Positions 1-64,000 of a stretch of DNA of 64,000 nt are shown here, piece after piece (position 1 is the first letter of the stretch; every line of letters begins with the position of its first letter). The position numbers and the translations under genes are program-made. The notes below the pieces were generated by a model that was not told the origin of the DNA, searched no databases, and saw only the letters and a list, made by a program, of their open reading frames with translations. This DNA comes from Escherichia phage vB_EcoS_Uz-1, in sequence record OP312987.1; one strand, 5' to 3'.

Positions 1-268
1 CGTTTTCTGAATCTTTGCAGAATTCCTCAATACTTTTCTTACGCAGAGTCTCGTTCATAGCTGTTTCTTCAGCTAATTTGTTTACGAATGTATGCATTTC
101 TAACTTAGTACGGATGGCTTGTTTCTCTGCCATAGTAGATACATATGAGTTAAGCATACCTACTGCTTTAGTAGCTGTGCCAAATGTATCTGCAACAGTA
201 GTAGCAGCTGAGTTAACAGTACCAAGTAAAGTTCCTGCGGTCATACGTACAGTAGCTTGAGTAGTCAT
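1..268 (-). CDS. hypothetical protein, 3' end truncated by window edge
   Basis: Minus-strand frame opens at ATG 268..266 with GGAG about 9 nt upstream and stays open to position 1; Thr/Ala-rich product (MTTQATVRMTAGTLLGTVNSAATT...). The plus ORF 15..260 is its antisense. Confidence 0.45.
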   Translation of the reverse strand, partial: MTTQATVRMTAGTLLGTVNSAATTVADTFGTATKAVGMLNSYVSTMAEKQAIRTKLEMHTFVNKLAEETAMNETLRKKSIEEFCKDSEN

Positions 269-469
269 GATGATAGCTCCAATAGTTGATGATAGGACGA
301 CATGTCCATAACATGCGGAGCATGTGTAACGTGTAAGGTGGGGTAGGGTAGTGGCTACAGGGTCAACATACCGGGGGGGCTAGTTGAGTGTAAGGGTGTA
401 GCCCCTGCCACACCACTACAGCCATACATAGCTATCACAATTTTGGTATGCAAAAATAATATAGCTATC

Positions 470-796
470 TCACTTATAAGCAGTTAAATAGGAGGAAATA
501 ACCAGTGAGGGGTTGTAGTCATGGTAATACCAATATGCGTCACTATGGGTAGTGTTTATAGGCATACCAATGTAATCAAATACCCATAAGCAGAAGTGGT
601 TTACTTCATGGATAAGTGTTGGTAAGGGTTCCTGAAAGATACCCATAAGAACCTTATTACCGGAGTAAGAAGTAAACCCTTTACAACCTTCTATGTCTGG
701 TTCATACCCTTTAAGTTTCTTGTACTTCTTAACGAAGGTATCCTGATCAAATACTACCTCTAACTGCACTGGGTAGGGAGATGTGTTTAGTTTCAT
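470..796 (-). CDS. small hypothetical protein, possible sixth member of the paralog array (HEVNH motif)
   Basis: ORF track 108 aa; start overlaps the upstream gene stop (ATGA); contains LIHEVNHF, loosely alignable to the HExxG core of neighbouring paralogs. Confidence 0.5.
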   Translation of the reverse strand: MKLNTSPYPVQLEVVFDQDTFVKKYKKLKGYEPDIEGCKGFTSYSGNKVLMGIFQEPLPTLIHEVNHFCLWVFDYIGMPINTTHSDAYWYYHDYNPSLVISSYLTAYK

Positions 797-1076
797 TGTC
801 TTTCCTTATAGATTGGGGTGTTATCCTCGAAGGATAGGATGTACTTGTCTGTATTGAGATGCCATGGACTGAATCTACCCTGCCAGGACATTGGTGTACC
901 TGGTTCAAGTAGATGTACTTCTGCTTTCTTATTGTGTAAGAAAAGCAATCCTTGTAGTTCATGCAAGGACTGTTCGTCTGGAACCAGGATAAGTATATCA
1001 GCATCTAGGTTAGCTACTTTTTATGGTGGGTGTATTCATCCCAAGGTATTTCTGAATAAATTTTACTGATAACCAT
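793..1076 (-). CDS. paralog-family small protein, frame-shifted in this assembly
   Basis: Hand translation: ATG 1076..1074 gives MVISKIYSEIPWDEYTHHKK then a stop; the adjacent frame continues ...LDADILILVPDEQSLHELQGLLFLHN...YKERQ with the family core motif. The frames join if the T5 run near 1018-1023 gains one base. Not in the ORF track. Confidence 0.4.
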
Positions 1077-1306
1077 TAGATGCTCTCGTCGCTAGATAAA
1101 TATGAGGTAGATGGGTAGAGGGTAATGAGTCTACCGGTTAGAGTAGTTACTACCATAGGTTCTGTAGTGGAGTAGATGTACACAACTATGTGCTCCGGTA
1201 TTTCTACGGAATCTTCTATCTTAATGAATTTGATAGGTTGCCCCAGCATTAAGCAAGTACCAATGAACACTTCTGCTTCTTCGCATTGTTCGTAGTACAT
1301 GGTCAT
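1076..1306 (-). CDS. paralog-family small protein
   Basis: ORF track 76 aa; core EQCEEAEVFIGTCLMLG matches the family motif; N-terminus may lie upstream in another frame. Confidence 0.5.
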   Translation of the reverse strand: MTMYYEQCEEAEVFIGTCLMLGQPIKFIKIEDSVEIPEHIVVYIYSTTEPMVVTTLTGRLITLYPSTSYLSSDESI

Positions 1307-1395
1307 AGGCGTGCTTATTCTAATCCAGTGAGATTTACCTACCCCAGATTAAGGGGACTGGTACTACGATAACTCAAACCATAGAAGCGCATAAC

Positions 1396-1710
1396 TTACT
1401 TCCTTACATAGTAGTAACGGTACTCCTCATCATCATGCCTACAATCCCATTGGTAGTCATCGGATACCATCATGAAAGGTAGAGCGTCTACGCACTTAAA
1501 GTTGGTATATACTGATGGAGGAATGATACATACAACTTTACGGTCATTGCCTGCTAAGAAGAGCTGACCCCTTACTTCATGATAATCCTCTAAGGTAGGA
1601 ACCAAGATTACATGCTGGGGGTTGCTATCTATGACTTCCTCTAAAGTAAAGTCTGTTGTGTACAAGGCTCCCCTTCTAACAAAACTAGGGACGGTCAGTA
1701 TGAATTTCAT
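1396..1710 (-). CDS. paralog-family small protein
   Basis: ORF track 1396..1785; likely start at the internal Met (MKFILTV...); core VILVPTLEDYHEVRGQLFLAGN. Confidence 0.5.
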   Translation of the reverse strand: MKFILTVPSFVRRGALYTTDFTLEEVIDSNPQHVILVPTLEDYHEVRGQLFLAGNDRKVVCIIPPSVYTNFKCVDALPFMMVSDDYQWDCRHDDEEYRYYYVRK

Positions 1711-2074
1711 GGTTGATTTTCCTTCCTTTAGGGATAGGTCTGAAGTAAATGGAAAGTGTTTTATTAAAGAGGTTATGTTCAACAATCATTTCCCAGTCAG
1801 GTACTTTATAGAACCTGACTCCTGGGAAGAACTGTTTGAAGTCTGCATAATCAGTAAGGTCATACACAACTGGTTCAGTAAGTATCACAGTATTGATTTG
1901 CAGGTTTGATAAGAAAAGAGAGCCAACTATCTCGTGGGATTCTTCACAGTCTGGTAGGAAGACTACTTGTTTAGGAGCTAGGAACTTACTTACCATCTCT
2001 GGTTCCCCAGGTAGATAGGGTTCCTGCTTACGAAGTACTCCGGTAATATCAATATCAAAAGCGTAGATGCTCAT
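1685..2074 (-). CDS. paralog-family small protein
   Basis: ORF track 129 aa; core VVFLPDCEESHEIVGSLFLSN clearly related to the 1396, 1076, 793 and 2274 genes. Confidence 0.55.
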   Translation of the reverse strand: MSIYAFDIDITGVLRKQEPYLPGEPEMVSKFLAPKQVVFLPDCEESHEIVGSLFLSNLQINTVILTEPVVYDLTDYADFKQFFPGVRFYKVPDWEMIVEHNLFNKTLSIYFRPIPKGRKINHEIHTDRP

Positions 2075-5011: not shown

Positions 5012-5722
5012 ATGCAAAAATTATCAGAAGTATACCGTGGCTTGGCACTAAGTACCTTGAAGGGTACTGGTGCAATCACGGATGATAGATTAGGTATTGA
5101 ACCAGATAGTAAGCCTGAAATACTGGCAGCTATTAATGAAGGACTGGTTCGACTGCATAGTCGTTTCCCCCTTAGGACTAATAGCTGTATTGTGGAGATG
5201 AAGGAAGGACGTACTGATTATCCTCTTCAATCCAAGTATGCTTACTCCAGGTTTACTAAACCTACTCTTGAGATTCAGTATCCGTATATCATGGATGGGT
5301 TCATGAAGCCTTTCCAGGATGATGTTATTAAAATCTTAAATGTGTTTGATAACTCAGGTAACCGACGTAGATTGAACGATGATTCAGACCCCCGTGCTAT
5401 CTTCACCCCACGGCCTGATACTATTCAGTGTATGCGACCTCGACACTTCGAAGCACTTAACGTAACTTATCAGGCAAAGCACCCAGTACTTACGGGTGAT
5501 GAAGAACAGGAAGTTGATTTAGCTGATACGCTAATGACGGCACTTCATAACTGGGTGGGTTATCGTTACCACACTGGTTTGAATACCCCAGAAGCTAATG
5601 CTAAAGCAGCAGAGTATCTGCAAACGTATGAAAGCATCTGTGGTGAGGTTGTTGATTACGACCTGGCTAATGGAAGTATTTCAATTACCGAAACTAAATT
5701 TGAACAACGAGGATGGCGATGA
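5012..5722 (+). CDS. hypothetical virion protein
   Basis: 236-aa ORF with GAGGA upstream of ATG 5012, inside the late structural block. Confidence 0.6.
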   Translation: MQKLSEVYRGLALSTLKGTGAITDDRLGIEPDSKPEILAAINEGLVRLHSRFPLRTNSCIVEMKEGRTDYPLQSKYAYSRFTKPTLEIQYPYIMDGFMKPFQDDVIKILNVFDNSGNRRRLNDDSDPRAIFTPRPDTIQCMRPRHFEALNVTYQAKHPVLTGDEEQEVDLADTLMTALHNWVGYRYHTGLNTPEANAKAAEYLQTYESICGEVVDYDLANGSISITETKFEQRGWR

Positions 5723-7515
5723 ACTCACATACCCCCTTTGATGCAAATCAGGATTGGACCAATCCTTACTGTCATAACAGTTCCAATGACCCTATGGTAG
5801 ATGCACTGCTTGGTAATGCTTACCATGTGGTACGTACTGTCTACTGTAATTTAGGTAACCTCAAACTCATTTATGATTTCTTGAATAAATATGGAATGGT
5901 GCTTGGTGTACAGTCTGAAGCAGAACTTAAAGCATTAACTACTAAAGCTAAGTATGCACGTATCTACGGCTTCTCTCGTACAGGTGACCGTCAGGTAACT
6001 GACTACTTATACGTAGAGGGTGACCGTACAGGTATTTTACCCGATGACACTACTGCAACCGGTTCATGGATTACTGTTGCTACTTCTGGCTCTACTGGTG
6101 GTGGTGGTACTTCTTCCAGTGAAGGTGCTTATATTCCTTGGGTATACAGCAATGGTTCCGCTACTGGTGGTGAAACCACAATTAACGTACCTGACGGTAC
6201 TGTGGGTGTACCTTTTATCATTATTAATGGTGACATGCAGTATGTAGGGCGAGGCTTTGAGTTTAACGCAGATAACCTGTCCGTAACTCTGGCTCAGCCT
6301 CTGGAAGAGGGTGATGAAGTAGTATTCCTTCTGACTGGGGTTCCTGCTGTACCAGATAATCCTAACGTTAACGACTGGGTTCAGATTAATTGGTTATACA
6401 ACAATGGTGCTGCTGTAGGAGGTGAGCAGGTTATTGCTATCCCTTATACCTTCCAGTCTATTCCTGCCGTGTATAAGAATGGACTTCGTTTGTATAAAGG
6501 ATTAACTACTGAGTCCTATACTGCTGACCCGGATAGCCAACGTATACTTCTTACTGAACCACTGACAACCAATGACCGGTTGATTGTGCAAATTGGTGGG
6601 GAAGCACAGGTACTGGAAGCATCAGACCATACTCTTCAGGAAGTTGCTCGTGCTGCTAATGTTAAAGATAGTGAAGTAATCCTTAGTACTGATACTTCTC
6701 AGATACTTAATGGTAAAAAGGTAATTTTTGATGTAGCTACCCAACACTGCTATGCCTTACCTACTTTGCCCAGTAATGTTTATATTACGTCTGTTAATGA
6801 AGGTCAGTTAACATTTTCCCCGGGTAATATAACAGTTGATTTGTTACCACTGGTTGACTCAAAGGAAAACATTGTTGCTGTGGTTAAGGATATCTATTCA
6901 CAGTCAACTGGTTCGGTATCCGTTGGGCATGGTTCAAGAACTGTTGCTGACAATCTAGATGATATCAAGCATTCAGCTAACTACCCTGATTTACAAGCTG
7001 CAATTGACGCTACAAATCCACGTGATGATCTGCTCATTACAGCAGGTACATACCCAGGTGGGTATACTTCAGGTAATGCAAACCTAATCGGTGTAGGTTA
7101 TGGTGTCAATTTTACCCCGGGTATTGGTAAAACTTCTCTTACACTTTCCGAGTCTTCTCGTTTATGGCAATACCGCCATGCGGAAAACTTTCTAATAACT
7201 GGGTCAGTAGATGTACCACAGGGCATCGGCATTACTTTTGGTGGTTCGCCTACACCGAACCTGGATGGGCGTTGGAATTTTAAACACATTGCATTTGACG
7301 GGCTTGACATTGGTGTATTTAAACCTAAAGGGAATATTGGTAATACATACCAACACTGCAGCTATTTAGGGTGTAATTACGGGCATAAAACTGAGTCAGA
7401 TCCAAATATGCACGTGGGGCTGATACATGGAGGGATTGCCATTTTGCAGGCATCAATACTTATGGTATTTACCTTAACGGTTCTGTTGGTGGCCCTGCTC
7501 CAGGTGGTGGTCTAG
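5713..7515 (+). CDS. tail fiber / tailspike-like protein (N-terminal part)
   Basis: 600-aa ORF, Gly/Thr/Ser-rich with an internal tandem repeat of an NG..GGE module; the last ~25 residues are hydrophobic and look out of frame. Confidence 0.65.
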   Translation: MAMNSHTPFDANQDWTNPYCHNSSNDPMVDALLGNAYHVVRTVYCNLGNLKLIYDFLNKYGMVLGVQSEAELKALTTKAKYARIYGFSRTGDRQVTDYLYVEGDRTGILPDDTTATGSWITVATSGSTGGGGTSSSEGAYIPWVYSNGSATGGETTINVPDGTVGVPFIIINGDMQYVGRGFEFNADNLSVTLAQPLEEGDEVVFLLTGVPAVPDNPNVNDWVQINWLYNNGAAVGGEQVIAIPYTFQSIPAVYKNGLRLYKGLTTESYTADPDSQRILLTEPLTTNDRLIVQIGGEAQVLEASDHTLQEVARAANVKDSEVILSTDTSQILNGKKVIFDVATQHCYALPTLPSNVYITSVNEGQLTFSPGNITVDLLPLVDSKENIVAVVKDIYSQSTGSVSVGHGSRTVADNLDDIKHSANYPDLQAAIDATNPRDDLLITAGTYPGGYTSGNANLIGVGYGVNFTPGIGKTSLTLSESSRLWQYRHAENFLITGSVDVPQGIGITFGGSPTPNLDGRWNFKHIAFDGLDIGVFKPKGNIGNTYQHCSYLGCNYGHKTESDPNMHVGLIHGGIAILQASILMVFTLTVLLVALLQVVV

Positions 7516-7520
7516 ATGGA

Positions 7521-8435
7521 TTGGCAATTCGTGATTGCATCATGGAGGCAAGCCCAGGTGGTGGCATTTATTTTAAAGGCAATGGATTAGCTCCTGTAGT
7601 ACCACCTACCATCAGCAATGTATGGTTCGAATTGGTAGCCACTGCAGACACAGTAACTGTTGACGGAGTTCCGCAAGCACCTAGACAGTTGAAACTAGAA
7701 AACGTTCCGGTAACTGTTGCAGAGGGATGCTATTTTAACAATATTGAGTTAATAAACTCTACTCTAGTGGCGAAAAACTGCAGGTTTGATAATGCGTCCG
7801 GTGTGTATGACATTAATGTCAATTCCGGTAGTCAAATCATTGCACATGACCTGATTGTTGGTGGCTCTGTTGGGCCAAAGGTTTTTGTAGAATCTGTATC
7901 GGATGTGTCATTCCCTGTTGCTAATAGTCTGGATTTATCCTTAAGAGGAACCTGTCTGAAAGGACGAATTAAGAGGCTTTCCAATGGTCAGGCAATGCTA
8001 TCTGAATCTTTCGCTGGTGCAGGTCCATGGCAGTTCCTGGGTACTTCTACTGTTGATGCAACTTCCGTAACGGATGGTGTATTGTCAGACACTTGCGGTC
8101 AAATAGTAGTACCAGCAGGAGCTACAGTAATGCTAAATGTACCCGCTAGTTTGGCTCAGTACTACACCCTAGTTTGGGGAGCAAGCCTGAAATTGGTATC
8201 CGGCGATGTAACAGCAACTCTATCGGATAGTATTAATATAGGTAGCTTGTATACCAGTACTGGTGAATGGGTGCACACCTTTGGGGTTGGGCAGTTAGGT
8301 ACTGCTGGTACAGTTAAACTAACCTTTTCCTCCGTGGCAGGTTGCGTTTTACGTATGAGTGATGTGTTTGTTGCTCAGTTTGCTAACAAGTATGATGCAT
8401 ATAATTTTGCTAACTCTCGTATGTCTATTGGCTAA
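7521..8435 (+). CDS. tail fiber / tailspike-like protein (probable C-terminal continuation of 5713 gene)
   Basis: ORF track start is TTG with no SD; this frame is open back to 7395 and reads protein-like sequence (GINTYGIYLNGSVGGPAPGGG...). Confidence 0.5.
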   Translation: MAIRDCIMEASPGGGIYFKGNGLAPVVPPTISNVWFELVATADTVTVDGVPQAPRQLKLENVPVTVAEGCYFNNIELINSTLVAKNCRFDNASGVYDINVNSGSQIIAHDLIVGGSVGPKVFVESVSDVSFPVANSLDLSLRGTCLKGRIKRLSNGQAMLSESFAGAGPWQFLGTSTVDATSVTDGVLSDTCGQIVVPAGATVMLNVPASLAQYYTLVWGASLKLVSGDVTATLSDSINIGSLYTSTGEWVHTFGVGQLGTAGTVKLTFSSVAGCVLRMSDVFVAQFANKYDAYNFANSRMSIG

Positions 8436-8483
8436 ACAGACTGCCTTCGGGGCAGTTCCTTATAGAAAAACAATGAGGTTTAT

Positions 8484-10598
8484 ATGAACGAAATGTTCTC
8501 ACAAGGCGGTAAAGGCTCTACTGGTATTCTTACCAATAAGCAAGCCATTGCCCGTAAGTTTGGTGTTAAGCAGAATGAAGTAGTCTATTTTTCTGTAGGT
8601 GTAGACTTGGGTGGATACAAAGTCATTTATGATAAGACTACTCAACGCGCTTACTCATTGCCCGTACTTCCAGTAGGAACCACTGCTGTAAGTCTTAGTG
8701 AACATGCAGTCTTGGTTCATTCGGCAGGTACAGTTGATTTGGGTGAACTGGCTGCTGCACGTAGAGAGTTTGTATGCTTATCTGATTCATTTACTACGGG
8801 CTTAGTAGTAAATACTCGAAATGAGCTTTTGATGCATAATGGTATTGGTTATACCTACTTAGGTTCTCTACCCGTAACTATTGTTGAAGGGGCCAACCCT
8901 GTTGGCAACACGGATTGGAAGTCCCAAACGGATCCTAATTTGCGTGCTCAGTTGGCATCTCAGGATGGTATGACTTTAATTGGTAGTGTACCCGACGTAA
9001 CTGCCCTGGCTTCTGTTGGAGCAACAGTAGGGTCTAGTATAATGCTAGATTCGTACTCAGGCTCTTCCGTTGGTGGGGGTATTATGATTGCGGTTCCTAA
9101 TACTACTCCTGTAGATGAAGTTGTAACTTTCACCGGTGCAGGAGTGGTCTGGAAGCGTAAGTTCTTTGATGGCACTGCTACGGTATACGATGCAGGTTAT
9201 ACTGGTACGGGGGATATTGCCCCATTCATTAACAAGGTAAACTCTGCCGGTTACGATTGTCTTGTACCTACATCAGGGACTATTAGTACACCTATCTTAC
9301 TGGATGTAGCTAAGGGGGCTTTAGTAGGAGCCAATAAGTGTACCCTTACGGAAATGGAAGGTGTAACAGGAGAGTATTATTTAACCGTAATCAATTCTAA
9401 TACAGATTACACAGCCCGTGATGCCATTAATGCTACTGCCCTATTAACAGGTATTTCCTTTGTAGGTAAAGGTACTCGAAAGATGTGCTTGGGCAGTAGT
9501 ACTGGAGGGGAGATAGCAGAATTACGTATATCTAACTGCGGGTTTATATCTACCGCAGGTATTGAGTTTAAAGATAATGCATACCGTATCCTGTTTGATA
9601 AGTGCACCATTTCTCGCAGTTTTACTAACTCTGTAATCTTTAATTCCCCGGTTAATGCTGGTGAGGTTATAAAATTCAACCACTGCTGGATGGTTGATAA
9701 TGGGGGTCCATTTACATTTGAGAATGGGCAGTTCATCTTTGATTCATGCTCATTACCAGCAGGTAAAAAGGCAGGCTACTTCGATCCAGTAGTGGCATTA
9801 AGTGATAATGCTACCTTAGTATTTGCTAACGGTAATATTGAGTATCAACCCGGGCAGAGTTTTGTAGGCTTTACTGTGAGTGGAAGCTCACGCCTCAGTA
9901 TTAAAGATTCTACTATTCTGCTTCCAGAAGGCTACAGTACAGTGCCTATTGTTAGTAATGGTGATGGGGTAGTTAGTTTAAATAACTGCTCATTGCCCCT
10001 CTACGGTAACACAACGATTGCTACTGGATTTGCTACAAGACAGTTGATAGGCGGTGCAAGTAAAAAAGTAATGTCCAGAGGGTGCTTCCCTCGTGCAGGA
10101 TTTATTACAACTAACTGGAATCTAGGGAGCATTGTAAGCCCATATATTAATAGTATTAGCAATGGCTCAGGACAGTTTGGAAATACATCTAACTGGACAC
10201 TCTCGCAAACTGGAACAGGTGCTGTCACTGCTACTACAGCAAATGATGTTCCTAACGATTTAATGTTTACAACTTCTTTTGTTTTATCTGTACCATCAGC
10301 AGATGCAGCAGCTAACTTCACTCAAACAATCATTGATTGTGAACCGGGTCGTTATTTTCAGTTTGGTTTTTGGGCTAAAAATACAACAACCACCTTGGCG
10401 TCAATTAGATTCCTGGACCAGCAAGGAAATGCTGTTGCGGATTCCATAGGATATATCATTCCAGTAGTAAACACGTTCAACTTTTACGCTTTGGTGGATT
10501 GCGTTCCTCCAGGAGCTTACAAAGCTGAAATTAATTTTAATGTTTCTTCAGTTGTTGGAGGCGTCGTAATACACAATGCAGTTTATGGATTGATTTAA
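8484..10598 (+). CDS. tailspike / receptor-binding-like protein
   Basis: 704-aa ORF, ATG 8484 with GAGG upstream; N-terminal ~45 aa share a motif (..TQ..Y.LP.LP) with an internal segment of the 5713 gene; beta-rich, Gly/Thr/Asn-rich. Confidence 0.7.
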   Translation: MNEMFSQGGKGSTGILTNKQAIARKFGVKQNEVVYFSVGVDLGGYKVIYDKTTQRAYSLPVLPVGTTAVSLSEHAVLVHSAGTVDLGELAAARREFVCLSDSFTTGLVVNTRNELLMHNGIGYTYLGSLPVTIVEGANPVGNTDWKSQTDPNLRAQLASQDGMTLIGSVPDVTALASVGATVGSSIMLDSYSGSSVGGGIMIAVPNTTPVDEVVTFTGAGVVWKRKFFDGTATVYDAGYTGTGDIAPFINKVNSAGYDCLVPTSGTISTPILLDVAKGALVGANKCTLTEMEGVTGEYYLTVINSNTDYTARDAINATALLTGISFVGKGTRKMCLGSSTGGEIAELRISNCGFISTAGIEFKDNAYRILFDKCTISRSFTNSVIFNSPVNAGEVIKFNHCWMVDNGGPFTFENGQFIFDSCSLPAGKKAGYFDPVVALSDNATLVFANGNIEYQPGQSFVGFTVSGSSRLSIKDSTILLPEGYSTVPIVSNGDGVVSLNNCSLPLYGNTTIATGFATRQLIGGASKKVMSRGCFPRAGFITTNWNLGSIVSPYINSISNGSGQFGNTSNWTLSQTGTGAVTATTANDVPNDLMFTTSFVLSVPSADAAANFTQTIIDCEPGRYFQFGFWAKNTTTTLASIRFLDQQGNAVADSIGYIIPVVNTFNFYALVDCVPPGAYKAEINFNVSSVVGGVVIHNAVYGLI

Positions 10599-10603
10599 TT
10601 AAA

Positions 10604-46661: not shown

Positions 46662-46669
46662 ATCACTAA

Positions 46670-53529: not shown

Positions 53530-53533
53530 CAGA

Positions 53534-53779
53534 TTAGTTACCTTTCAGTTTATTTAGACGATTACGGTAGAGGGACTTAAACCCAGGAATATCCTCTGGA
53601 TTCTTCTTAAGGTGTTTGACCAAACTACCTAAGTCCAGCGTCTGTAGGATGTCATTTTTATTCCAGCTATAACTGAATAATTCTTTGTAATCATTAAGTA
53701 TTTTAAAGTACTTATGATTACGCGGATTAGTCATTATTGCATATGGCTCTAAGTCATCCACTGACTTAATACAACCCAT
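53534..53779 (-). CDS. hypothetical protein
   Basis: 81-aa ORF between the rIIA-like and 682-aa genes. Confidence 0.45.
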   Translation of the reverse strand: MGCIKSVDDLEPYAIMTNPRNHKYFKILNDYKELFSYSWNKNDILQTLDLGSLVKHLKKNPEDIPGFKSLYRNRLNKLKGN

Positions 53780-53880
53780 TTCAACAAGTTTTTCTTTGTT
53801 GTCGTGTGGTCGATTCCGTAGAAAGTCATATGCCCATTCATATTCTGGTTTAAAAATCAGATTCTGTAATGGTTTGAAGG

Positions 53881-55263
53881 TTAGACCAGTATGTCTAGGA
53901 TTTCCCAGTATTCCCTGTCATCCAGTCCTACGTATTCCAGAATACCAATACGGTGTTCAGTAACATATTTCTTGAAGCCTTTACTGGTAATAACTGGCAT
54001 CAGCTCCATAAAGCGAACATCATCAATGTGGATAGCACCTCTCCGTTTGGCCTTGTTAGCTTCGATTTGATTACGGCAGACAACAGTCTCTGCTCTCATC
54101 TCATCAGATAACTCATACCATTTCCACATGGTTCCAATTCGAGCAGTTACTGGGCTACCTGAACCAACCTGATTGGCTAGTACGTAGTACTTAGGTTGCT
54201 CTACTTCAACGAAACCAGACTTATCATGGCGACTTGGGTCTGCAAATTCCTTCTGAATATAAGGCTTTGGTTCCCAATCCCCATTTTTATTCCGTATTTG
54301 GGTAGCACCAAGAACTGCATTCAATGAAATCAGAGAATTAGTTTTACCTCCTGCCTTGGTTTTATTGGCAGCGATTGTCTTAGACCGTTTCTCAGCAGCT
54401 ATCTTAGCTTTCTCTCTACGGAAGTTAGTTGGTTTGTCCCACTCATTATATTGAGTAAGGTCGATTACCCGATAACCCATAGCAGTGAACTTAGCCACAG
54501 CTTCTTCTGCTGCACCCTTCTTAGGTCCAACGACGTGAACAAAAGCTGTACGCTCCAGGTCACCTCGATCGTACTCAGGGAAGTACGAGAAAGAGTCTGC
54601 ACAGTCAGACAAACGTCGGGTAACTACAACGTTTTTGGTAGTGAATATGCCAATACTTTGGTGGGAGTTATTGTATATCCTAAAGTAGTCAGTAAGTTTA
54701 CCTTTTACCAAGTCAACACGGTTACCTTGATTCATTATGTAACCAGACCACTTAATACCAGAGGTTTTCAAAGCAGCCAGCTGAGGTAAGTGCAGATGGC
54801 GATATACTAATTCCGAGAATGGGGAGTATGTACTTTCTTCACGAGTATCCTTAAGAGCACGCATAGCCTTACCATACAGTTTCTTAAGACCTGCGTATTC
54901 AGGACGAGCTAATAATGCCTTATTGGATAAATTACGCCAGTGCTTGATGTAATGCTTACGTTGCTTAGCCCACAAACTAGAGGACATATAGCGTTGAACA
55001 GTTCTGTCTGTAACAGCACCCAGGAATGATGGATACTCCCAGAAGCGAGTAGAGGATTTAGAAGCATATTCTTCAACCTGCTTAATGGCTTCAGGAATCT
55101 TAGCCTTAATCTCTTTCTCCATACGGTCTACTAAATCTACACATAGAGTAGTAATACCATCGTCGGTTAACTTCTGGTTAGACAGCGTTTCTCGACTAGG
55201 AGCAATAGCTAAAGTGTCTGGTGCAGCCTGAACTACTAGATTAGAAGCACCAATAATATTCAT
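53881..55263 (-). CDS. rIIA: rIIA-like protein, C-terminal fragment
   Basis: 460-aa ORF starting 17 nt after the GHKL-ATPase ORF in another frame with no SD; its frame is open ~20 codons upstream into the other ORF's end. Confidence 0.55.
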   Translation of the reverse strand: MNIIGASNLVVQAAPDTLAIAPSRETLSNQKLTDDGITTLCVDLVDRMEKEIKAKIPEAIKQVEEYASKSSTRFWEYPSFLGAVTDRTVQRYMSSSLWAKQRKHYIKHWRNLSNKALLARPEYAGLKKLYGKAMRALKDTREESTYSPFSELVYRHLHLPQLAALKTSGIKWSGYIMNQGNRVDLVKGKLTDYFRIYNNSHQSIGIFTTKNVVVTRRLSDCADSFSYFPEYDRGDLERTAFVHVVGPKKGAAEEAVAKFTAMGYRVIDLTQYNEWDKPTNFRREKAKIAAEKRSKTIAANKTKAGGKTNSLISLNAVLGATQIRNKNGDWEPKPYIQKEFADPSRHDKSGFVEVEQPKYYVLANQVGSGSPVTARIGTMWKWYELSDEMRAETVVCRNQIEANKAKRRGAIHIDDVRFMELMPVITSKGFKKYVTEHRIGILEYVGLDDREYWEILDILV

Positions 55264-55280
55264 GAAGTTGAGGATAAGGC

Positions 55281-56099
55281 CTACAGCTTCTTCACTAGCT
55301 GGGCTGGATACAATTGGTACATTACATTACCGTAGCGAACGTATATGTTACTGCTACCCATATAGCCTTGATACCATCTATCAGACATATCATATGAACC
55401 AGGTTCAAATGGCATGCCTAGTGTATCCAGTAGAGTGTAGTCGCCTTGTTGAATACTATTACTCTCGTCTGTTCTAATGAGTTTGGGAGTACTTAGCTCA
55501 GCTTTAATTTCACCGTTAAACACAATTGATTTGATGTAATGAATAAAGGTATTTAAATCATGTTTGCCTAACTGGAATTTAACTTCCAGACCAGATTCCT
55601 CAGTAGGAATACCAGTAATAATAGGAACAATACCAGGCTTACCATCATTCTCAATTGCAGCCTTAGCTACGTTATATACAGACATCTTCCCTTGGTTCCA
55701 TGATGTAACCTGGAAGCTATCTGTATAAGCGAATGGGGATTTACATCCCAGACCAAAGCCACCAGTAACACTACTGTTGGACTTCTTGGTAGATGCACCA
55801 TAGACACCATAAATGGAGCCAATGAGTTCATCTTGGATACCGTTACCGAAGTCACGGAAGGTAATAAAGTTGTCAGTATCAATGGTAATACGGATAGGAG
55901 TATCAGTCTTACCTGCTTCAATATGGGCATCCCAACTGTTACAGATAGTTTCACGGACTACTGCCAGAGTAGGGTTGTTATACAAGGAAGTACTTAATAC
56001 ATGAAAGAATGCCGGGTCATCAGAGATGCCAAAGGCGATTGCTTCTTTGCCACCCAGTGTCGCTGAAGTGGCTGATTGATTGGTATCTGCAACTAACAT
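55281..56099 (-). CDS. rIIA: rIIA-like protein, N-terminal GHKL (Bergerat-fold) ATPase fragment
   Basis: ExxxNxxDA-type VRETICNSWDAH, DxGxG-type FRDFGNGI and Gly-rich VTGGFGLGCKSPF motifs, as in GyrB/Hsp90/MutL-type ATPase domains found at rIIA N-termini. Confidence 0.65.
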   Translation of the reverse strand: MLVADTNQSATSATLGGKEAIAFGISDDPAFFHVLSTSLYNNPTLAVVRETICNSWDAHIEAGKTDTPIRITIDTDNFITFRDFGNGIQDELIGSIYGVYGASTKKSNSSVTGGFGLGCKSPFAYTDSFQVTSWNQGKMSVYNVAKAAIENDGKPGIVPIITGIPTEESGLEVKFQLGKHDLNTFIHYIKSIVFNGEIKAELSTPKLIRTDESNSIQQGDYTLLDTLGMPFEPGSYDMSDRWYQGYMGSSNIYVRYGNVMYQLYPAQLVKKL

Positions 56100-56126
56100 T
56101 TATTTACTCTCCAGTTTAAATGTTGC

Positions 56127-56375
56127 TTACATTAGAACTTGTTTACACTTATCAAAAATAGCTTTACGAAGTTCAGCTTCTTCCCGTGGTTCATCATTAG
56201 GATGGTGACCTACAGGACTATTTTGAAAAGCATTCATTAGGAATAAGACCTGATACTCGGTTAAACCATTAATCTGAATGCTATACGTTTTCTCTGAGGC
56301 GATATTTACATTAGCCATTGCGTTTACCTGCCATTGCTTGTAATACAAACACAGCCATATCTGATGCCATGTCAT
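56127..56375 (-). CDS. small hypothetical protein
   Basis: ORF track 82 aa; probable start at internal Met (MANVNIAS...) near 56318 because of overlap with the upstream ORF. Confidence 0.4.
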   Translation of the reverse strand: MTWHQIWLCLYYKQWQVNAMANVNIASEKTYSIQINGLTEYQVLFLMNAFQNSPVGHHPNDEPREEAELRKAIFDKCKQVLM

Positions 56376-56685
56376 CTGTTATATCGTTGACCGTTCCATA
56401 TGGTAGTGGGCCGTTCTCTTCCCAGTTATCTAACGTGTTTTGTACTTCAGCTAAACCAGCCTGAATCATTTCCTTGCTTGGTTCCAGCCATAACTTACGT
56501 TCCTCTGCTAGTGCAGCGATGCATATGCATAGAGAGGCAATGTTAGCTGGACAAGCAGCAATATCACCAGTTACTGCAATCTCACTGAGTGGGACAGCCT
56601 TACCGGTTTTACTATGAATTACTTCAGGGTTAATCATGAATTTGCTCCAGGTTATGGGCAGGAATAGGGAAGCATGGATAGTCAC
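56311..56685 (-). CDS. hypothetical protein
   Basis: 124-aa ORF. Confidence 0.45.
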   Translation of the reverse strand: MTIHASLFLPITWSKFMINPEVIHSKTGKAVPLSEIAVTGDIAACPANIASLCICIAALAEERKLWLEPSKEMIQAGLAEVQNTLDNWEENGPLPYGTVNDITDDMASDMAVFVLQAMAGKRNG

Positions 56686-56842
56686 CGGTAGGGTCCAGTG
56701 TTACTGACACATGCAGTGTATTTGTCATTTGGGTTAGCATCTGAGCAGCATTGAAATCATCCTGGATACAGGCATATACAATGTCGCCCTTCTCACCCTC
56801 ACACATTACGGGTGTGTCTTTGATACGGTATTTAGCAGGCAT
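56630..56842 (-). CDS. small hypothetical protein
   Basis: 70-aa ORF immediately downstream of a minus-strand terminator. Confidence 0.4.
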   Translation of the reverse strand: MPAKYRIKDTPVMCEGEKGDIVYACIQDDFNAAQMLTQMTNTLHVSVTLDPTGDYPCFPIPAHNLEQIHD

Positions 56843-56867
56843 ATGCCCTCCTGAAAGAGTTAATTGA

Positions 56868-56897
56868 AACCAAAAAAGACCTCCCGGAGGAGGTCTT
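56868..56897 (-). terminator. intrinsic terminator
   Basis: AGACCTCC-CGGA-GGAGGTCT hairpin followed on the minus strand by TTTTTTGG. Confidence 0.7.
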
Positions 56898-56901
56898 AGG
56901 T

Positions 56902-57117
56902 TTACTTACGATTTTGTTCTACAAATCGTATCATTTGTTTTTTCACTTCTTCTTGCTCACGAATTGCTTCGTAGTCACGAGCAAAGTAGTAAACACACCA
57001 TAAACCAATCTCGCTTACAAAGAACAGAATACTAGCTCGAATGAACTGCATATCTGTTTCTACGACAAAGGCAACTTTGTATGCGTAGGTCAGTGTTAGT
57101 AGGGTACTAATTAGCAT
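56902..57117 (-). CDS. small membrane protein
   Basis: 71 aa with two hydrophobic segments. Confidence 0.5.
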   Translation of the reverse strand: MLISTLLTLTYAYKVAFVVETDMQFIRASILFFVSEIGLWCVYYFARDYEAIREQEEVKKQMIRFVEQNRK

Positions 57118-57136
57118 TGCGTATAGAGCTAGTTTT

Positions 57137-58081
57137 TCATTCTGTAATTGTTTCTCCGGGGATTAGTTTACGGAATTGGATGAAATCCAGTAAGTTGCCA
57201 GAATACAGCTTACCTTCACGGTCCATAGATGTAACACCCTGTTCCCATGTTAATGGGTTCTGGTTGTTCACATACTTATCACCAACAGTCATAGGAGTTG
57301 CCTGGTGTTCGGTAGGGGATGCATGAATAGGTTGGTTTTCAACTAACTTAGCAAACAATCCTAAGTCCTCTTCAATAGTAGATGGACGGCCTTCGAAATT
57401 GTTGTAAGAAGCACGAGCACAACGAGCAGCACTTACTTTAAGAAGTAAGCCATACACTTCTTCACGACTTGGCTCATCACGAGTAATTCGCTGATGTTTG
57501 CAGTAATTATAAGCCCCGACACGATCAATATGAGCAATATACGGTAAATGCCATTCCCCTTGTGGGAGTGCTCTCGTAGTGCTTTCATTGTGTGCCTTAC
57601 GCATTGCTTGAGCCAGTTCACGAATCTCTGGTTGAGCGTCCTCATGGTCACGCAATCCATAGAAGTTAGTCCAGCTAGTTGAAGTTACCACTACACGGAT
57701 ATGTGTGAATGGTTCCAGAATACGGTTAACAATCTGCTTATGTACTTGACCACGACGAAGCATTTCTGCATAGGTAGCAGCACTGGACGCAGCCTGATTC
57801 CAGATAAAGATTGCATCTACGTTGGTCTTCGGACTGAGTTCCTCAAATGCCTGCATACCCTTCTGGTTCTTACCCCAGTGACTTGGCATCACTGGTTCAT
57901 TACGAACCTGTTCGATGAACTTAGAAGTAGGGATAGCACGACTACTTGAAGCATTTCGGTTGAATACACGGTGAGTCATAAACTCACTGTGGATGAATCG
58001 GGGGTAAACCAATTCAAAGGTAGTAATACGAGTTCCTGTTTCTGGGTGAACGGAATCTGCAATGACAGTTGCCTTAATCAT
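57137..58081 (-). CDS. thyX: ThyX-like (flavin-dependent thymidylate synthase family) protein, tentative
   Basis: Segment TTFELVYPRFIHSEFMTHRVFNRNASSSR resembles the ThyX core around the RHR...S.R signature as recalled, with T in place of the first R; 314 aa. ThyA motifs absent. Confidence 0.45.
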   Translation of the reverse strand: MIKATVIADSVHPETGTRITTFELVYPRFIHSEFMTHRVFNRNASSSRAIPTSKFIEQVRNEPVMPSHWGKNQKGMQAFEELSPKTNVDAIFIWNQAASSAATYAEMLRRGQVHKQIVNRILEPFTHIRVVVTSTSWTNFYGLRDHEDAQPEIRELAQAMRKAHNESTTRALPQGEWHLPYIAHIDRVGAYNYCKHQRITRDEPSREEVYGLLLKVSAARCARASYNNFEGRPSTIEEDLGLFAKLVENQPIHASPTEHQATPMTVGDKYVNNQNPLTWEQGVTSMDREGKLYSGNLLDFIQFRKLIPGETITE

Positions 58082-59059: not shown

Positions 59060-59299
59060 TTACGATTGTAGTCTGAGACTGCCTTTATTAGACAGTGCCC
59101 AAATTAGTGCTACTACCCAGAAGACTAAAGACCAGCCTAATACGATATTGAGCACACCAATGCCCCACTTGGAGGCATGGCCTCGTGCAAAAGCAATGAT
59201 AGTAGGGATGAGGTATACAGCTATTATGAATAAGAAAACAAGGATTGCTGCTAAAGATTCCATGATGGTTCCTATGTGGGGTTGAGTTAGTTTCTTCAC
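59060..59299 (-). CDS. superinfection immunity (Imm-like) membrane protein
   Basis: 79-aa two-TM protein with YLIPTIIAFARGHASKWGIGVLNIVLGWSLVFWVVALIWAL, matching the recalled signature of the T4 Imm-like family. Confidence 0.65.
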   Translation of the reverse strand: MKKLTQPHIGTIMESLAAILVFLFIIAVYLIPTIIAFARGHASKWGIGVLNIVLGWSLVFWVVALIWALSNKGSLRLQS

Positions 59300-60062: not shown

Positions 60063-60580
60063 TATTTCATTCCTTTAGGGATATGAACTACCTCCCCAAA
60101 AGGTACGGTAGCATTGGGATTATTCAGAACACACCAGATGATAGGAATATCAAATGGCAATTCTTCCATTGGACGAACATACATATCGGAGAATATGATT
60201 GCAGCGGTTGGCTTATTCTTAATAATCCAATCACGTACTGGTTCCAGGTTTGTACCACCACGACCTGTAATCTTAATCTCTTCAAATGTATCTTCTTCAG
60301 TGATGTCTATCTCTTCTTGGATAATATCGTCGAAGGTAATTAGGGACATCTTCTTAGGATTGAACTGGCTTTTAACGTAGGCAACCTCTGAGTTAAATCG
60401 CAGAGAGTCTGCACTACTAATAGAACCAGATACATCTTCAAAGTAGGCCAGGTGTCGTAAACGTCCTTCATCATCTTCCATAGAAGGTAGATAGATATCA
60501 GTAAAACGACGGTTAGGTCTGGCCCATGTATAACGTGATTCATCAATGTCGGTAAAAAGTTCATCAGAACTTCTTGCCAT
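60062..60580 (-). CDS. VWA-like domain fragment (C-terminal part of a metallopeptidase-VWA protein)
   Basis: MIDAS-like EDVSGSIS and ITGRGGT motifs; upstream region continues in other frames toward the metallopeptidase ORF. Confidence 0.55.
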   Translation of the reverse strand: MARSSDELFTDIDESRYTWARPNRRFTDIYLPSMEDDEGRLRHLAYFEDVSGSISSADSLRFNSEVAYVKSQFNPKKMSLITFDDIIQEEIDITEEDTFEEIKITGRGGTNLEPVRDWIIKNKPTAAIIFSDMYVRPMEELPFDIPIIWCVLNNPNATVPFGEVVHIPKGMK

Positions 60581-60634: not shown

Positions 60635-61234
60635 TTACCTGGCATCTGTCCACCAGCCATTTTCTGGCTTTGCATTGCACGTACTACGTTGTTGACAACA
60701 GCACCCTGGGACTGCCCGGAGTGGGGATTTCATGTCGCCAGCAAGACCTGCTCCAGCACCCCCTGACGGCTTCTGCCTTTTCTGAGGGTTCTTCATCAAG
60801 TCATCGTAGATATCTTCTTCGACCCATCCTTTATATTGAGGGTCTTTGCAAATACCTTTGTCGATACCAGTGAATTTGTAACCATCTTCTTCTAACTGAA
60901 GGTTAATGAAGTGGTCACATGCCTGGTTCCAGACTTCTGGGTCACGGCTTCCACGACGGATGTCATGTAGATATGCCACATGCCAGAGTTCGTGCATTAA
61001 CACTGTTTCTCTTGCGTCTGGACACATCCAGATAAAGAAATCTGGATTGAAATGGAGTTCTATCCCATCGGTACATGCAGTGGGACAATCCTCGCGTTTC
61101 CACGAGAACTTAAGACTACATAGTAATGAACCAAAGAACGCAGCGCTTCGACCTAGGAAAGCCTGAGCTTGAATACGATCATATTCACGCATGAGTTGTT
61201 CATCTGTGAGACTATGCGTAGGTATACTGTTCAT
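60635..61234 (-). CDS. zinc metallopeptidase-like fragment (HExxH), N-terminal part of metallopeptidase-VWA protein
   Basis: HELWHVAYLH motif; C-terminal ~40 aa of the ORF look out of frame (Cys/Gln-rich). Confidence 0.55.
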   Translation of the reverse strand: MNSIPTHSLTDEQLMREYDRIQAQAFLGRSAAFFGSLLCSLKFSWKREDCPTACTDGIELHFNPDFFIWMCPDARETVLMHELWHVAYLHDIRRGSRDPEVWNQACDHFINLQLEEDGYKFTGIDKGICKDPQYKGWVEEDIYDDLMKNPQKRQKPSGGAGAGLAGDMKSPLRAVPGCCCQQRSTCNAKPENGWWTDAR

Positions 61235-61712
61235 TAGGGTGCTCCATGATTGGGGTGATAGCCATACAGTTTTTCAGCCGCTTTTCTGGCGTCTATGGCA
61301 TCTTGCTTGTCTGCAAAAGTGCCCAAACTTACCAGACGTGTTCCATCAGATATAGCTGCATACCAGATGGAATCACGCTTGTGCCAGTACACACCAGTAA
61401 CACCACTGGAATTAGTTACCCGTTTCTTTTGGTTTCTGGTGTTAGTTCTGCTGTCTACTAATCTAAAGTTACTTAGAAGGTTATTAACCCTATTGTGGTC
61501 TAGGTGATCAATCTGCATACCTTTCGGGATAGGTCCATTGTGCATTTCCCATATGACACGGTGCACTTTGTAACTTTTGCCCTTATAGTTGAAGCATAAA
61601 TAACCATCGCTATTTAGATTACCTACCTTTTTCCAGCAATGCCTCTGGAGGCTACTGTAACTTTCCAGAATAGCTCCCCATTTATGTAAACGAGTATGTC
61701 ATTCCAGTTCAT
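61234..61712 (-). CDS. HNH homing endonuclease with AP2-like domain, frame-shifted in this assembly
   Basis: ORF track 61234..61566 has HNH motif IDHLDHNRVNNLLSNFRLVDSRTN and AP2-like tail; the N-terminal ~50 aa (MNWNDILVYINGELFWKV...) lie upstream in another frame from ATG 61712, joined if an A5 run gains one base. Confidence 0.75.
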
Positions 61713-61719
61713 GTTGTGA

Positions 61720-62220
61720 TTATCCGTGAATGTAGCGGGAGATGTTAGCAGCAGCCTTACGCCATTCAGGGGTAGCCTGAAGTTCTGGCAATGCTCTGCC
61801 TACTGTACGAAAGTACAGAATCTTATGAGTGAACGTTTTAAAGCGTTCAATGTACTGAAGAACATCAGCGAAGTTTTCCTCAGTAGTTTTGTTAGCCAGA
61901 TGGTTAACGGTAGCCCAACACAGGTTATTATCTTCCGGTAGTGTACAGCCCATAGGGTCTTTGACTACCTTATCAATCGTAATGATACGATTGTACACCT
62001 GTGTAAATTGAACAAACTCTGTAGCCTTACCAGCAGTAACGTGTCCTGCATAGTAGATAGAATCTTCATCAGGCAGAGCACCTTCAGGACGGTTCTTGAG
62101 GTCTTTGTTAACAAAGTCCCAGGTACGAGGGCAACAGAACGTTTTGTTCTTATGTGCTGGGTCGAAGTCATGCAGATAACCGGGGTTAGCATGTAAGAAT
62201 GCAACCAGACGTTCATCCAT
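61720..62220 (-). CDS. MoxR-like AAA+ ATPase, C-terminal fragment
   Basis: 166-aa ORF overlapping the 3' part of the ATPase ORF in another frame; protein-like sequence. Confidence 0.5.
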   Translation of the reverse strand: MDERLVAFLHANPGYLHDFDPAHKNKTFCCPRTWDFVNKDLKNRPEGALPDEDSIYYAGHVTAGKATEFVQFTQVYNRIITIDKVVKDPMGCTLPEDNNLCWATVNHLANKTTEENFADVLQYIERFKTFTHKILYFRTVGRALPELQATPEWRKAAANISRYIHG

Positions 62221-62771
62221 TGTTGTGGAATCATTACGTCTTCAACAAAGATGTCGAAGTTAAGTTCCATTTCGAAGTGGACAACACGGGACTGCATTGC
62301 AGTACCCAGTGGGTTAACGATGGCACGGTCAGTAGCTTTGTTACCAGCACAGATAATCATCACATTAGGATGAAGTTTTTTCTGACCAGTCATACGGTCT
62401 AGAATCAGTTTATATGCAGCAGCTATTACTTCTTTGCGAGCAGATGGGAACTCATCAAGGAATAAGAGCCAGCCATTATATCCTTCCGGTATTTTATCCC
62501 CTTCAATTGGGAATAAGTCAGCGAATGGAATAAACTCTGCACGGTCACCATTACGGAATGGTAAGCCAGAAAGGTCTTCCGGGGCAGAAGTTGACAGACG
62601 ATGGTCTATCAACTTCATACCAAATTCTTCTGCAATAGAACGAATGATTGCAGATTTACCCATGCCAGGTGATGAAGTCAGGAACGGTACGTTACCTGCT
62701 TTCAAAGCACGGATAATAAAGTTACGAGCTTGACGTGAATTACATACGGTCAAGGAGTCAATGCTTGCCAT
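61965..62771 (-). CDS. MoxR-like AAA+ ATPase, N-terminal part
   Basis: Walker A SSPGMGKSA, Walker B LLFLDEFPSA, ICAGN sensor-like motif; last ~60 aa look out of frame. Confidence 0.7.
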   Translation of the reverse strand: MASIDSLTVCNSRQARNFIIRALKAGNVPFLTSSPGMGKSAIIRSIAEEFGMKLIDHRLSTSAPEDLSGLPFRNGDRAEFIPFADLFPIEGDKIPEGYNGWLLFLDEFPSARKEVIAAAYKLILDRMTGQKKLHPNVMIICAGNKATDRAIVNPLGTAMQSRVVHFEMELNFDIFVEDVMIPQQWMNVWLHSYMLTPVICMTSTQHIRTKRSVALVPGTLLTKTSRTVLKVLCLMKILSTMQDTLLLVRLQSLFNLHRCTIVSLRLIR

Positions 62772-62805
62772 TTACTTACTCTCCTAAAGCTAATGGAATT
62801 ACTGA

Positions 62806-63135
62806 TTAAGATTTAGTGCAGGGATAGGCCTTGTGTACTGAGTACACAACAATTTGAGATGTATTCTTCATCTTGAGGATTGCAGAGTCATAAATAACCA
62901 CTTTGGCAATCTTAGGCAGAATGACCGAATATTTAATACCTTCTGGAACACAGTTATCTGTGCTCTCGATGTAAGAGATCATACTGCCCATGAAGAAACC
63001 TTGTCCGAACGCATCACGAGTGTCATCCAGGTAAGCCTGAGCACCTTCCAGAATTGGTTCTGGTTCAATTGCTTGTGCACTTGGGGCTAAAGCTATCAGT
63101 GCAGCTACTGCAATACCTTTAAGTAAAGTTTTCAT
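62806..63135 (-). CDS. secreted/periplasmic hypothetical protein
   Basis: N-terminal signal-peptide-like MKTLLKGIAVAALIALAPSAQA; 109 aa. Confidence 0.55.
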   Translation of the reverse strand: MKTLLKGIAVAALIALAPSAQAIEPEPILEGAQAYLDDTRDAFGQGFFMGSMISYIESTDNCVPEGIKYSVILPKIAKVVIYDSAILKMKNTSQIVVYSVHKAYPCTKS

Positions 63136-63321
63136 TTAGTTACCTTTCATTTCATTGAGTTTAAGTACACCGATAGGGGTTAATGACCACCCAAGACCAG
63201 CATTGAACTGAACTAAGCCCAGCTTCTTAAGAGACTGTGCGGTTTTGTTATTACGGTTGCTGGTGGCAGAACCACCTTGAACCATACGAAGGAAGATTGC
63301 TTGGGACTGAGTTAATTTCAA
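63136..63321 (-). CDS. small hypothetical protein
   Basis: 61-aa ORF abutting neighbours in a compact operon. Confidence 0.4.
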   Translation of the reverse strand: MKLTQSQAIFLRMVQGGSATSNRNNKTAQSLKKLGLVQFNAGLGWSLTPIGVLKLNEMKGN

Positions 63322-63527
63322 AGGTAATATCCTTCCAGGTTTATTGGTGTTACAAATGTATTTGCTGATAGATAGAATGATTTACCAGTTTCTACAGCAA
63401 CAGCAGCAGGTTTGCCTTCAGGTAGGTGAATCTTTAAACACACTGTCTGGTTATAAATAAAACCATTAGCAGGCTCTACATCACCGAAAGTTACTTCATT
63501 GTTCTCAGAACGATTTGTTACTTTCAC
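63318..63527 (-). CDS. small hypothetical protein
   Basis: 69-aa ORF, 4-nt overlap with neighbours. Confidence 0.45.
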   Translation of the reverse strand: MKVTNRSENNEVTFGDVEPANGFIYNQTVCLKIHLPEGKPAAVAVETGKSFYLSANTFVTPINLEGYYL

Positions 63528-63784
63528 TCATCTTCTCCTTCATCCGGTAGCGGTGATAAATCTACACCTAAATGCTTCAGGCGTTTCTCTAAGTCATCTA
63601 CCTTATTTTGATAAAATGACAGTAGCTCAGGTAGTATTCTTGTACGAGCTTGCGGTCCTAAATCCTTATCGTAAAAGGATACTTTCACCATATGTGGAGC
63701 TTTCTTCAAACTAGCTAATTGCTGTCGGTTGTCGTTGTATTCTTCATACAATTTCTCAACCAAATGTAGATTGTGGATATTCAT
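63524..63784 (-). CDS. hypothetical protein
   Basis: 86-aa ORF, 4-nt overlap with neighbours. Confidence 0.5.
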   Translation of the reverse strand: MNIHNLHLVEKLYEEYNDNRQQLASLKKAPHMVKVSFYDKDLGPQARTRILPELLSFYQNKVDDLEKRLKHLGVDLSPLPDEGEDE

Positions 63785-63969
63785 TTCTTCTCCGGTACGA
63801 ACTGCATTACACAGCTTTGATTACGAGGGATATTAAGTTCACATTCATGCTTGAGGGTTTGTGTTACAGAGTTTGGAGTAGAACCAAAATAGGTATTGGA
63901 GATAGCTACGAATCCTGCACCTATTAAACCACCTAGTAAGAATGAGAAGAATGCAATCTCTTTATACAT
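63781..63969 (-). CDS. small membrane protein
   Basis: 62 aa with N-terminal hydrophobic segment IAFFSFLLGGLIGAGFVAI. Confidence 0.45.
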   Translation of the reverse strand: MYKEIAFFSFLLGGLIGAGFVAISNTYFGSTPNSVTQTLKHECELNIPRNQSCVMQFVPEKK

Positions 63970-64000
63970 TTCCTGGCTCCAGATGTAGAAAACCCAGTCA

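Follow-up and report, generated by a model that had tools for sequence, protein, structure and literature searches.

Frame breaks in the genome record of Escherichia phage vB_EcoS_Uz-1 are homopolymer under-calls, very probably inherited from the Bp4 reference sequence

The genome records of phages Bp4 (KJ135004.2/NC_024142.2) and PD38 (MH669274.1) differ over 72 kilobases (kb) by three mismatches and 39 gaps only, and the two are essentially one phage, of the same type and with the same tail-fibre module. All 39 gaps are deletions in Bp4, 37 of them of one base and two of two bases. PD38 encodes the DNA polymerase (2,580 nucleotides, nt), rIIA (2,568 nt), gp43, gp51, gp53, gp24 and the tail fibre in single genes, whereas the Bp4 record annotates gp53, gp43, gp39, gp33, gp25 and gp24 as split. 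Both are the closest megablast records (93.9–94.5% identity) of the sequence dealt with here, namely positions 1–64,000 of record OP312987.1 of Escherichia phage vB_EcoS_Uz-1 (hereafter the window), in which the same genes are split in the same manner. The window comprises the greater part of the genome of an N4-like Escherichia coli podophage, which belongs to the G7C-like group of the genus Gamaleyavirus, family Schitoviridae; its structural genes lie on the plus strand and its replication genes on the minus strand. The subject of this report is the nature and the origin of the numerous breaks in its reading frames.

Compared with PD38, from which it diverges by 6%, the window is short of 36 bases, distributed over 34 sites (one nt at 32 sites, two nt at two), and has no insertions, and PD38 has the extra base at 34 of 34 sites. 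All 34 of the Bp4/PD38 gaps lying within these 64 kb are present in the window. The coding sites number 22 and affect 14 genes, while the remaining 12 sites are non-coding. The evidence given below supports the conclusion that the frame breaks are homopolymer under-calls and not biology. A previous sequence-only reading had proposed that at least eight genes need a one-base change to restore a single frame, and the comparison with PD38 confirmed all eight as broken where it placed them: the DNA polymerase gp39 at three sites (46732, 47109 and 48660), rIIA gp33 at two (53886 and 55316), the MoxR ATPase (AAA/MoxR-like gp24) at 62217, the VWA-metallopeptidase gp25 at 60554, 60718 and 60723, the HNH gene (HNH/AP2 gp24.1) at 61628, the paralog or small open reading frame (ORF) 793–1076 at 1018, and the two that had been regarded as probable only, i.e. 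the tail-fibre gene 5713–8435 (at 7416) and the 19780/20988 pair, which is gp53 broken at 20880. The figure of eight was an undercount, however, as six further genes (gp51, primase gp43, ORF 1076–1392, orf34, the gp30.1-like ORF and the Imm-like gp27.1) and the 12 non-coding sites have to be added. A Pfam search with the fragments confirmed the gene names given in that reading, with truncated domain matches. The gene calls in the window are wrong in that 14 genes are split, truncated or provided with false termini.

The sites are listed below; the state of the window is given first and that of the relatives second, a letter with a number denoting a run of that length, and the lengths of the repaired products are in amino acids (aa).

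1018–1022, minus strand: T5, T6 in PD38; the small ORF 793–1076 is interrupted (the PD38 coding sequence is 285 nt).
1342–1345, minus strand: C4, C5 in PD38; ORF 1076–1392, which contains Bp4 orf4, has a truncated N-terminus; 105 aa when repaired.
2123–2125, non-coding: C3, C4 in PD38, ECBP1 and G7C.
2674–2676, non-coding: G3, G4 in relatives.
2691–2693, non-coding: A3, A4 in relatives.
7416–7419, plus strand: G4, G5 in PD38; the tail fibre/tailspike gene falls into 5713–7515 and 7521–8435; 907 aa when repaired.
8444–8445, non-coding, between the tail fibre and tailspike genes: CC, CCC in PD38.
20880–20881, plus strand: one base lost; splits gp53 into 19780–20916 and 20988–22433; 884 aa when repaired.
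23556–23557, plus strand: first of four sites in gp51; CC, CCC in relatives.
23648–23651, plus strand: second site in gp51; CCGG, CCCGGG in PD38 and G7C (two nt lost).
23753–23755, plus strand: third site in gp51; C3, C4 in PD38; terminates ORF 22903–23769.
24007–24009, plus strand: fourth site in gp51; C3, C4 in relatives; terminates ORF 23766–24029. The four sites cost gp51 five nt, and repair of all of them gives 654 aa, the same as G7C gp51.
24886–24895, non-coding, upstream of the virion RNA polymerase: T-run deficit of one base.
36254, non-coding: C, CC in relatives.
37745–37746, non-coding, 39 nt from the transfer RNA (tRNA) 37785–37863: one C lost, outside any run.
38335–38343, non-coding: two sites; CC, CCC in the intact state, and G3, G4 in the intact state.
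38539–38543, non-coding: G5, G6 in PD38.
38652–38656, minus strand: T5, T6 in relatives; changes and lengthens the C-terminus of orf34.
43606–43607, minus strand: TT, TTT in relatives; splits the primase/DNS protein gp43 into 41694–43586 and 43583–43903. Intact gp43 has 717 aa in PD38 and in the Logan contigs described below.
46732–46735, minus strand: first site in DNA polymerase gp39; T4, T5 in relatives.
47109–47113, minus strand: second site in gp39; C5 in Bp4, C6 in PD38 and ECBP1.
48660–48662, minus strand: third site in gp39; T3, T4 in relatives; the true N-terminus is lost. Repair of the three sites gives 859 aa.
53886–53887, minus strand: first site in rIIA gp33; CC, CCC in PD38 and ECBP1.
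55316–55317, minus strand: second site in gp33; GG, GGG in relatives. Repair of both sites gives 855 aa.
56872–56877, non-coding: A6, A8 in PD38 (two nt lost).
57133–57137, minus strand: T5, T6 in PD38 and ECBP1; the start region of a gp30.1-like ORF (240 nt in PD38) is lost.
59082–59083, minus strand: CC, CCC in PD38 and G7C; changes the C-terminus of the Imm-like gp27.1.
60554–60558, minus strand: first site in gp25 (DUF2201_N metallopeptidase and VWA-like); A5, A6 in PD38.
60718–60726, minus strand: second and third sites in gp25; C3, C4 and G4, G5 in the intact state. Repair of the three sites gives 391 aa, the same as G7C gp25.
61628–61632, minus strand: T5, T6 in PD38; the HNH_3/AP2 endonuclease gp24.1 is truncated at its N-terminus; 159 aa when repaired.
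62217–62218, minus strand: CC, CCC in relatives; the AAA ATPase gp24 falls into 61965–62771 and 61720–62220; 350 aa when repaired.
63993–63995, non-coding: C3, C4 in PD38.

The artefactual nature of these breaks is evident, above all, from the relatives. They do not occur in PD38, which is three substitutions from Bp4, and phages ECBP1 and G7C have the additional base at almost all sites that can be aligned. Two Logan contigs from the Illumina runs ERR11438302 and DRR251959 show this base at every site to which they align, and the products that both encode measure 855 aa (rIIA), 859 aa (polymerase) and 717 aa (gp43). Polymerase matches that are full-length and in one piece number 39 in other records of the phage collection, and every one of them spans 2,580 nt, a span of 2,577 nt being found in the two Bp4 records and the window only; among the best 120 of 3,074 polymerase homologues every one is exactly 859 aa long. 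Hence, no break is conserved in any relative examined; each relative possesses one continuous ORF with one more base, which speaks against genuine frameshifts. At position 7416 only Bp4 and PD38 share the sequence at the DNA level, so a 200-aa peptide spanning the repaired junction was used instead. It gave a one-piece alignment in 38 other phage records, annotated mostly as tailspike or tail-fibre genes, and a two-piece alignment in Bp4.

PD38 was taken as the error-free template for the repair of the window. With its bases re-inserted, 62 of 62 PD38 coding sequences became intact ORFs on the window in spite of ∼3,800 substitutions, and the repaired genes are single ORFs of the lengths found in G7C. 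The DNA_pol_A match rose from 24.6 bits (profile positions 11–95) to 132.4 bits (11–336), and the coverage of the DUF2201_N profile was extended from positions 3–152 to 3–270 of 271. In addition, the substitutions which distinguish the window from Bp4 cluster at the third position of codons as read in the restored frame, and they do so in each of the segments between breaks. In the polymerase segment 46732–47111, most of which lies outside the listed ORFs of that strand, 30 of 34 substitutions fall at this position. Such a distribution implies that the lineage which donated these alleles evolved with uninterrupted genes. The same feature argues against pseudogenes, for there is no sign of relaxed constraint and the substitutions follow the uninterrupted frame in every segment, while recoding is contradicted by the presence of up to four sites per gene, some of them within catalytic domains. 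As 12 sites are non-coding, a translational mechanism is ruled out there.

It must be noted that split polymerase genes do exist in this genus. Gamaleyaviruses PhAPEC5, PhAPEC7, ST4, U1G, PGN829.1, phi G17, SP5M, Moonfish and PD205 give a two-piece polymerase match; in these phages gp39 harbours an insertion of ∼0.7–0.85 kb with an HNH endonuclease (“intron mobility”), and the split is genuine. The polymerase gene of the window (46167–48743), in contrast, has no HNH insertion and lacks three single bases only, although here, too, a G7C-like phage has its polymerase annotated as two coding sequences.

Errors in the length of homopolymer runs are a known error class of flow-based sequencing (454/Ion Torrent type), and the missing bases resemble it in pattern: they are single-base changes of run length which occur in coding and non-coding DNA alike, with a frequency that climbs steeply with the length of the run. 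In the intact sequence, runs of at least three are affected at 32 of the 34 sites against 4.5 expected (P = 4e-26), runs of at least four at 22 of 34 against 1.15 expected, and runs of at least six at nine against 0.09 expected. The rates of loss for run lengths 1 to 8 are 0.003, 0.035, 0.42, 2.1, 3.9, 30, 50 and 100%, respectively, three of five runs of 7–8 being shortened. The direction of the change is uniform (34 deletions and no insertions, sign test P = 1e-10). Three properties are unlike the flow-based type, namely that under-calls alone occur (39 versus 0), that ∼38% of the sites lie in runs of three or fewer, and that non-coding sites are in modest excess (see below). C or G accounts for 25 of 37 single-base losses, 17 of them being C on the plus strand, in a genome with a G+C content of 43%. 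The proposal that the breaks sit in homopolymers thus holds for the intact sequence; as the window reads, 13 of the sites are runs of two bases. Consequently, the suggested scan for homopolymers of five or more at ORF junctions would miss most of the breaks, because only eight sites touch such a run. The proportion of non-coding sites (12/34) exceeds the ∼17.5% that would be expected when run length is taken into account (P = 0.01), perhaps because some of the coding errors were corrected by hand in version 2 of the Bp4 record.

The origin of the under-calls is indicated by the relationship of the window to the Bp4 record. Over 64,000 bases the two share identical coordinates, ORF boundaries and the same 34 sites of missing bases; the alignment with KJ135004.2 contains 3,822 substitutions (6.0%) and not a single indel, so that position i corresponds to position i throughout. 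For comparison, the window shows 34 gaps against PD38, 68 against ECBP1 and 203 against G7C. The substitutions themselves look natural. Transitions are ∼2.2 times as frequent as transversions, and the changes are for the most part synonymous and at codon position 3, which holds 75–87% of them in well-conserved genes and about two-thirds in rIIB and thyX. The G7C allele is matched at 52% of the sites at which the window departs from Bp4, and at ∼30% of the differing sites the allele is found in neither ECBP1 nor G7C. Random mutation was considered as the source of the 6% differences and rejected on account of the third-position bias and of the fact that all ORFs stay open.

Certain parts of the window are closer to phages other than Bp4. 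In the regions of the virion RNA polymerase and the DNA polymerase, it is nearer to VTCCBPA_322 and AN24P2; the former gene is located as follows.

24938–35668: virion RNA polymerase gene, product of 3,576 aa.

In the DNA polymerase region, AN24P2 and VTCCBPA_322 share 94.5–94.7% identity with the window and Bp4 92.2%, yet the three deletions of Bp4 are all present. Likewise, a G7C-like haplotype at 23650 carries the exact two-nt loss of Bp4. The sequence at 47109 is CCTCC in the window and CCTCCC in G7C, i.e. the base is absent though the window has no long run there. At 24886–24895, where Bp4 reads T5-C-T3 and PD38 T6-C-T3, the window reads T6-C-T2, the deficit having been moved into the next T run by two substitutions. 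The indels thus join the window with Bp4, while the substitutions join Bp4 with PD38, and no phylogenetic tree fits both. Since artefacts that destroy reading frames are shared on a diverged background, the window must have been built on the coordinates of Bp4. It therefore carries another phage's alleles, which have the pattern of a different, natural Gamaleyavirus, set on Bp4's coordinates, with Bp4's errors inherited.

Against a background of 6–12% divergence, 12 blocks of the window are 100% identical to the Bp4 record:

5902–11543: the largest block, host-range module.
186–359: identity block.
780–1079: identity block.
35698–36318: identity block.
37465–38250: identity block.
38636–38837: identity block.
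44774–45610: identity block.
50768–50979: identity block.
53267–55679: identity block.
56116–57142: identity block.
61200–61722: identity block.
62503–64000: identity block.

Outside these blocks lie 22 of the 34 sites, including the three in the polymerase gene. Several block edges coincide with points at which G7C or ECBP1 lose alignable homology to Bp4 (11539 versus 11543, 35696 versus 35698, and 61204–61720 versus 61200–61722), the blocks concerned being, for example, those of the tail-fibre module and of gp24.1, the HNH gene. Edges of this kind are expected if stretches that failed to align kept the bases of the reference.

Taken together, these data argue for the breaks being artefacts of the record, i.e. 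homopolymer under-calls of the 2014 Bp4 GenBank/RefSeq entry which were inherited by way of a reference-templated consensus; the probability of this explanation is estimated at roughly 0.93. The course of events may have been as follows. The reads or contigs of another phage would have been placed on the Bp4 reference and substitutions alone called; insertions relative to this reference would have been dropped, and stretches with no usable alignment would have kept the Bp4 bases. The bases missing from Bp4 would thereby have survived, breaking 14 genes which would be intact in the real phage. Hence, the attribution of the breaks to homopolymer errors of the assembly was right as to their artefactual character, whereas their origin lies in the older Bp4 record and probably not in the assembly of the phage's own reads. 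It also follows that polishing against the Bp4 reference would leave the errors in place, while de novo assembly or indel-aware calling would remove them.

The published account of vB_EcoS_Uz1 (OP312987) agrees with a derivation from Bp4 in several respects. The genome is given as 72,583 bp, which is exactly the length of Bp4, with Bp4, PD38 and ECBP1 named as the closest relatives and with 97 features, among them tRNAs listed as “(Xle, Cys)” (PMC9670874). The latter is the unusual label of the Bp4 annotation. Sequencing was done on an Illumina MiSeq (SRR21162442; 2x300, about 120x), and Genome Detective formed part of the pipeline (PMC9670874). Several points nevertheless weigh against inheritance through a reference-templated consensus. 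The 72,583-bp contig is stated to be a SPAdes de novo assembly (PMC9670874), and such an assembly would not yield a sequence in register with a reference; the published description may, however, omit a reference-based step. Some of the identity blocks, such as that in rIIA (53267–55679), lie in genes conserved in all relatives, and natural recombination with a Bp4-like phage explains the identity blocks equally well. Finally, a search of 5.8 billion proteins with the repaired polymerase revealed no exact allele donor, the closest proteins differing at eight residues, and neither the exact portal protein nor the exact polymerase fragment of the window is on record. The closest polymerase matches come from the unrelated samples ERR11438302 and DRR251959. 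An exact 61-mer across the 47109 break had no match in IMG/VR.

The absence of a donor phage is also what lends some weight to the best surviving alternative, according to which the window is an in-silico derivative of Bp4 with natural-like substitutions and no indels, produced, for example, by the transfer of alleles from alignments of relatives. A perfect Bp4 register with substitutions only would be expected of such a construct, and the exact proteins of the window are absent from a collection of 15 billion proteins. This origin appears unlikely, though, given that ∼30% of the differing sites carry alleles of neither ECBP1 nor G7C and that there is a published record which has Bp4's exact length and whose properties match (PMC9670874). 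Were it correct, the verdict on the frame breaks would be unchanged.

Far less credit can be given to fresh errors in the window's own assembly, made on a homopolymer-prone platform independently of Bp4, which is what the sequence-only reading literally proposed. The dependence on run length and the occurrence of deletions only are indeed the signature of a flow-based or similar chemistry, and the errors in question would be of that kind; but 34 of 34 sites are exactly common to the Bp4 record, and independent processes would not coincide to this extent. Moreover, at ∼6% divergence the window has no private indel in 64 kb, and at 47109, where its own sequence offers no long run, the same base is missing. 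This explanation is very unlikely.

It is barely credible that some of the breaks are genuine, the candidates being those in A/T runs of 5–6 within non-essential genes such as gp24.1 (61628) and gp25 (60554). These would be length-variable tracts in a real phage population, expressed by slippage, and the Bp4 record would have caught real minority states of them. Slippage at A or T runs occurs in some phage genes, and a few of the sites are A5–A6 or T5–T6 runs, but the notion that the breaks as a whole are real (frameshift mutations, pseudogenes, programmed ribosomal frameshifting or transcriptional slippage) can practically be dismissed, because most of the coding sites read as only two to four C or G in the window and because the polymerase (three sites), the primase and the virion protein gp51 (four sites) would all have to be broken in a plaque-forming phage, in addition to the non-coding location of 12 of the sites and the intact state of PD38 mentioned above.

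Inheritance of the under-calls from Bp4 is thus a matter of data quality and involves no new biology, and the present report should be read as a curation note. Still, the wrong gene calls include the DNA polymerase, the primase, rIIA and three virion proteins, and any protein set derived from the window will hold fragments with out-of-frame tails. NC_024142.2 serves as the exemplar of the species Gamaleyavirus Bp4, and its 39 indel errors appear to have been propagated to a second sequence. The case illustrates that recent “complete genomes” may be contaminated by an old reference although their own data are accurate. With the 34 sites listed above, the window can be corrected at once.

Several minor observations were made in the course of the comparison. 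In the gap between ssb (40042–40845) and gp44 (40885–41637), at ∼40854, both Logan contigs have one more base than the window, Bp4 and PD38. Since PD38 agrees with the window here, the additional base is more likely to reflect natural intergenic variation than an under-call. Nucleotides 1–410 of the Bp4 record recur in its last ∼410 nt, and positions 1–410 of PD38 match both copies. The linear Bp4 record therefore includes a terminal redundancy, and the start of the window lies inside it.

The window encodes three tRNAs, none of which is disrupted or masked by the non-coding deletions, as ARAGORN gives the same three before and after the repair. One of them, a tRNA Ala (anticodon cgc) at 38155–38226 on the minus strand, is not annotated in the Bp4 record. 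The other two, located at 37006–37084 and 37785–37863, have unusual anticodons (Ile aat and Cys aca), and the Cys aca tRNA is labelled “tRNA-Pseudo-ACA” in ECBP1. Finally, an antisense ORF of 472 aa (16957–18375, minus strand) spans the whole of the major coat protein gene (16954–18156, plus strand) and is probably a shadow ORF.

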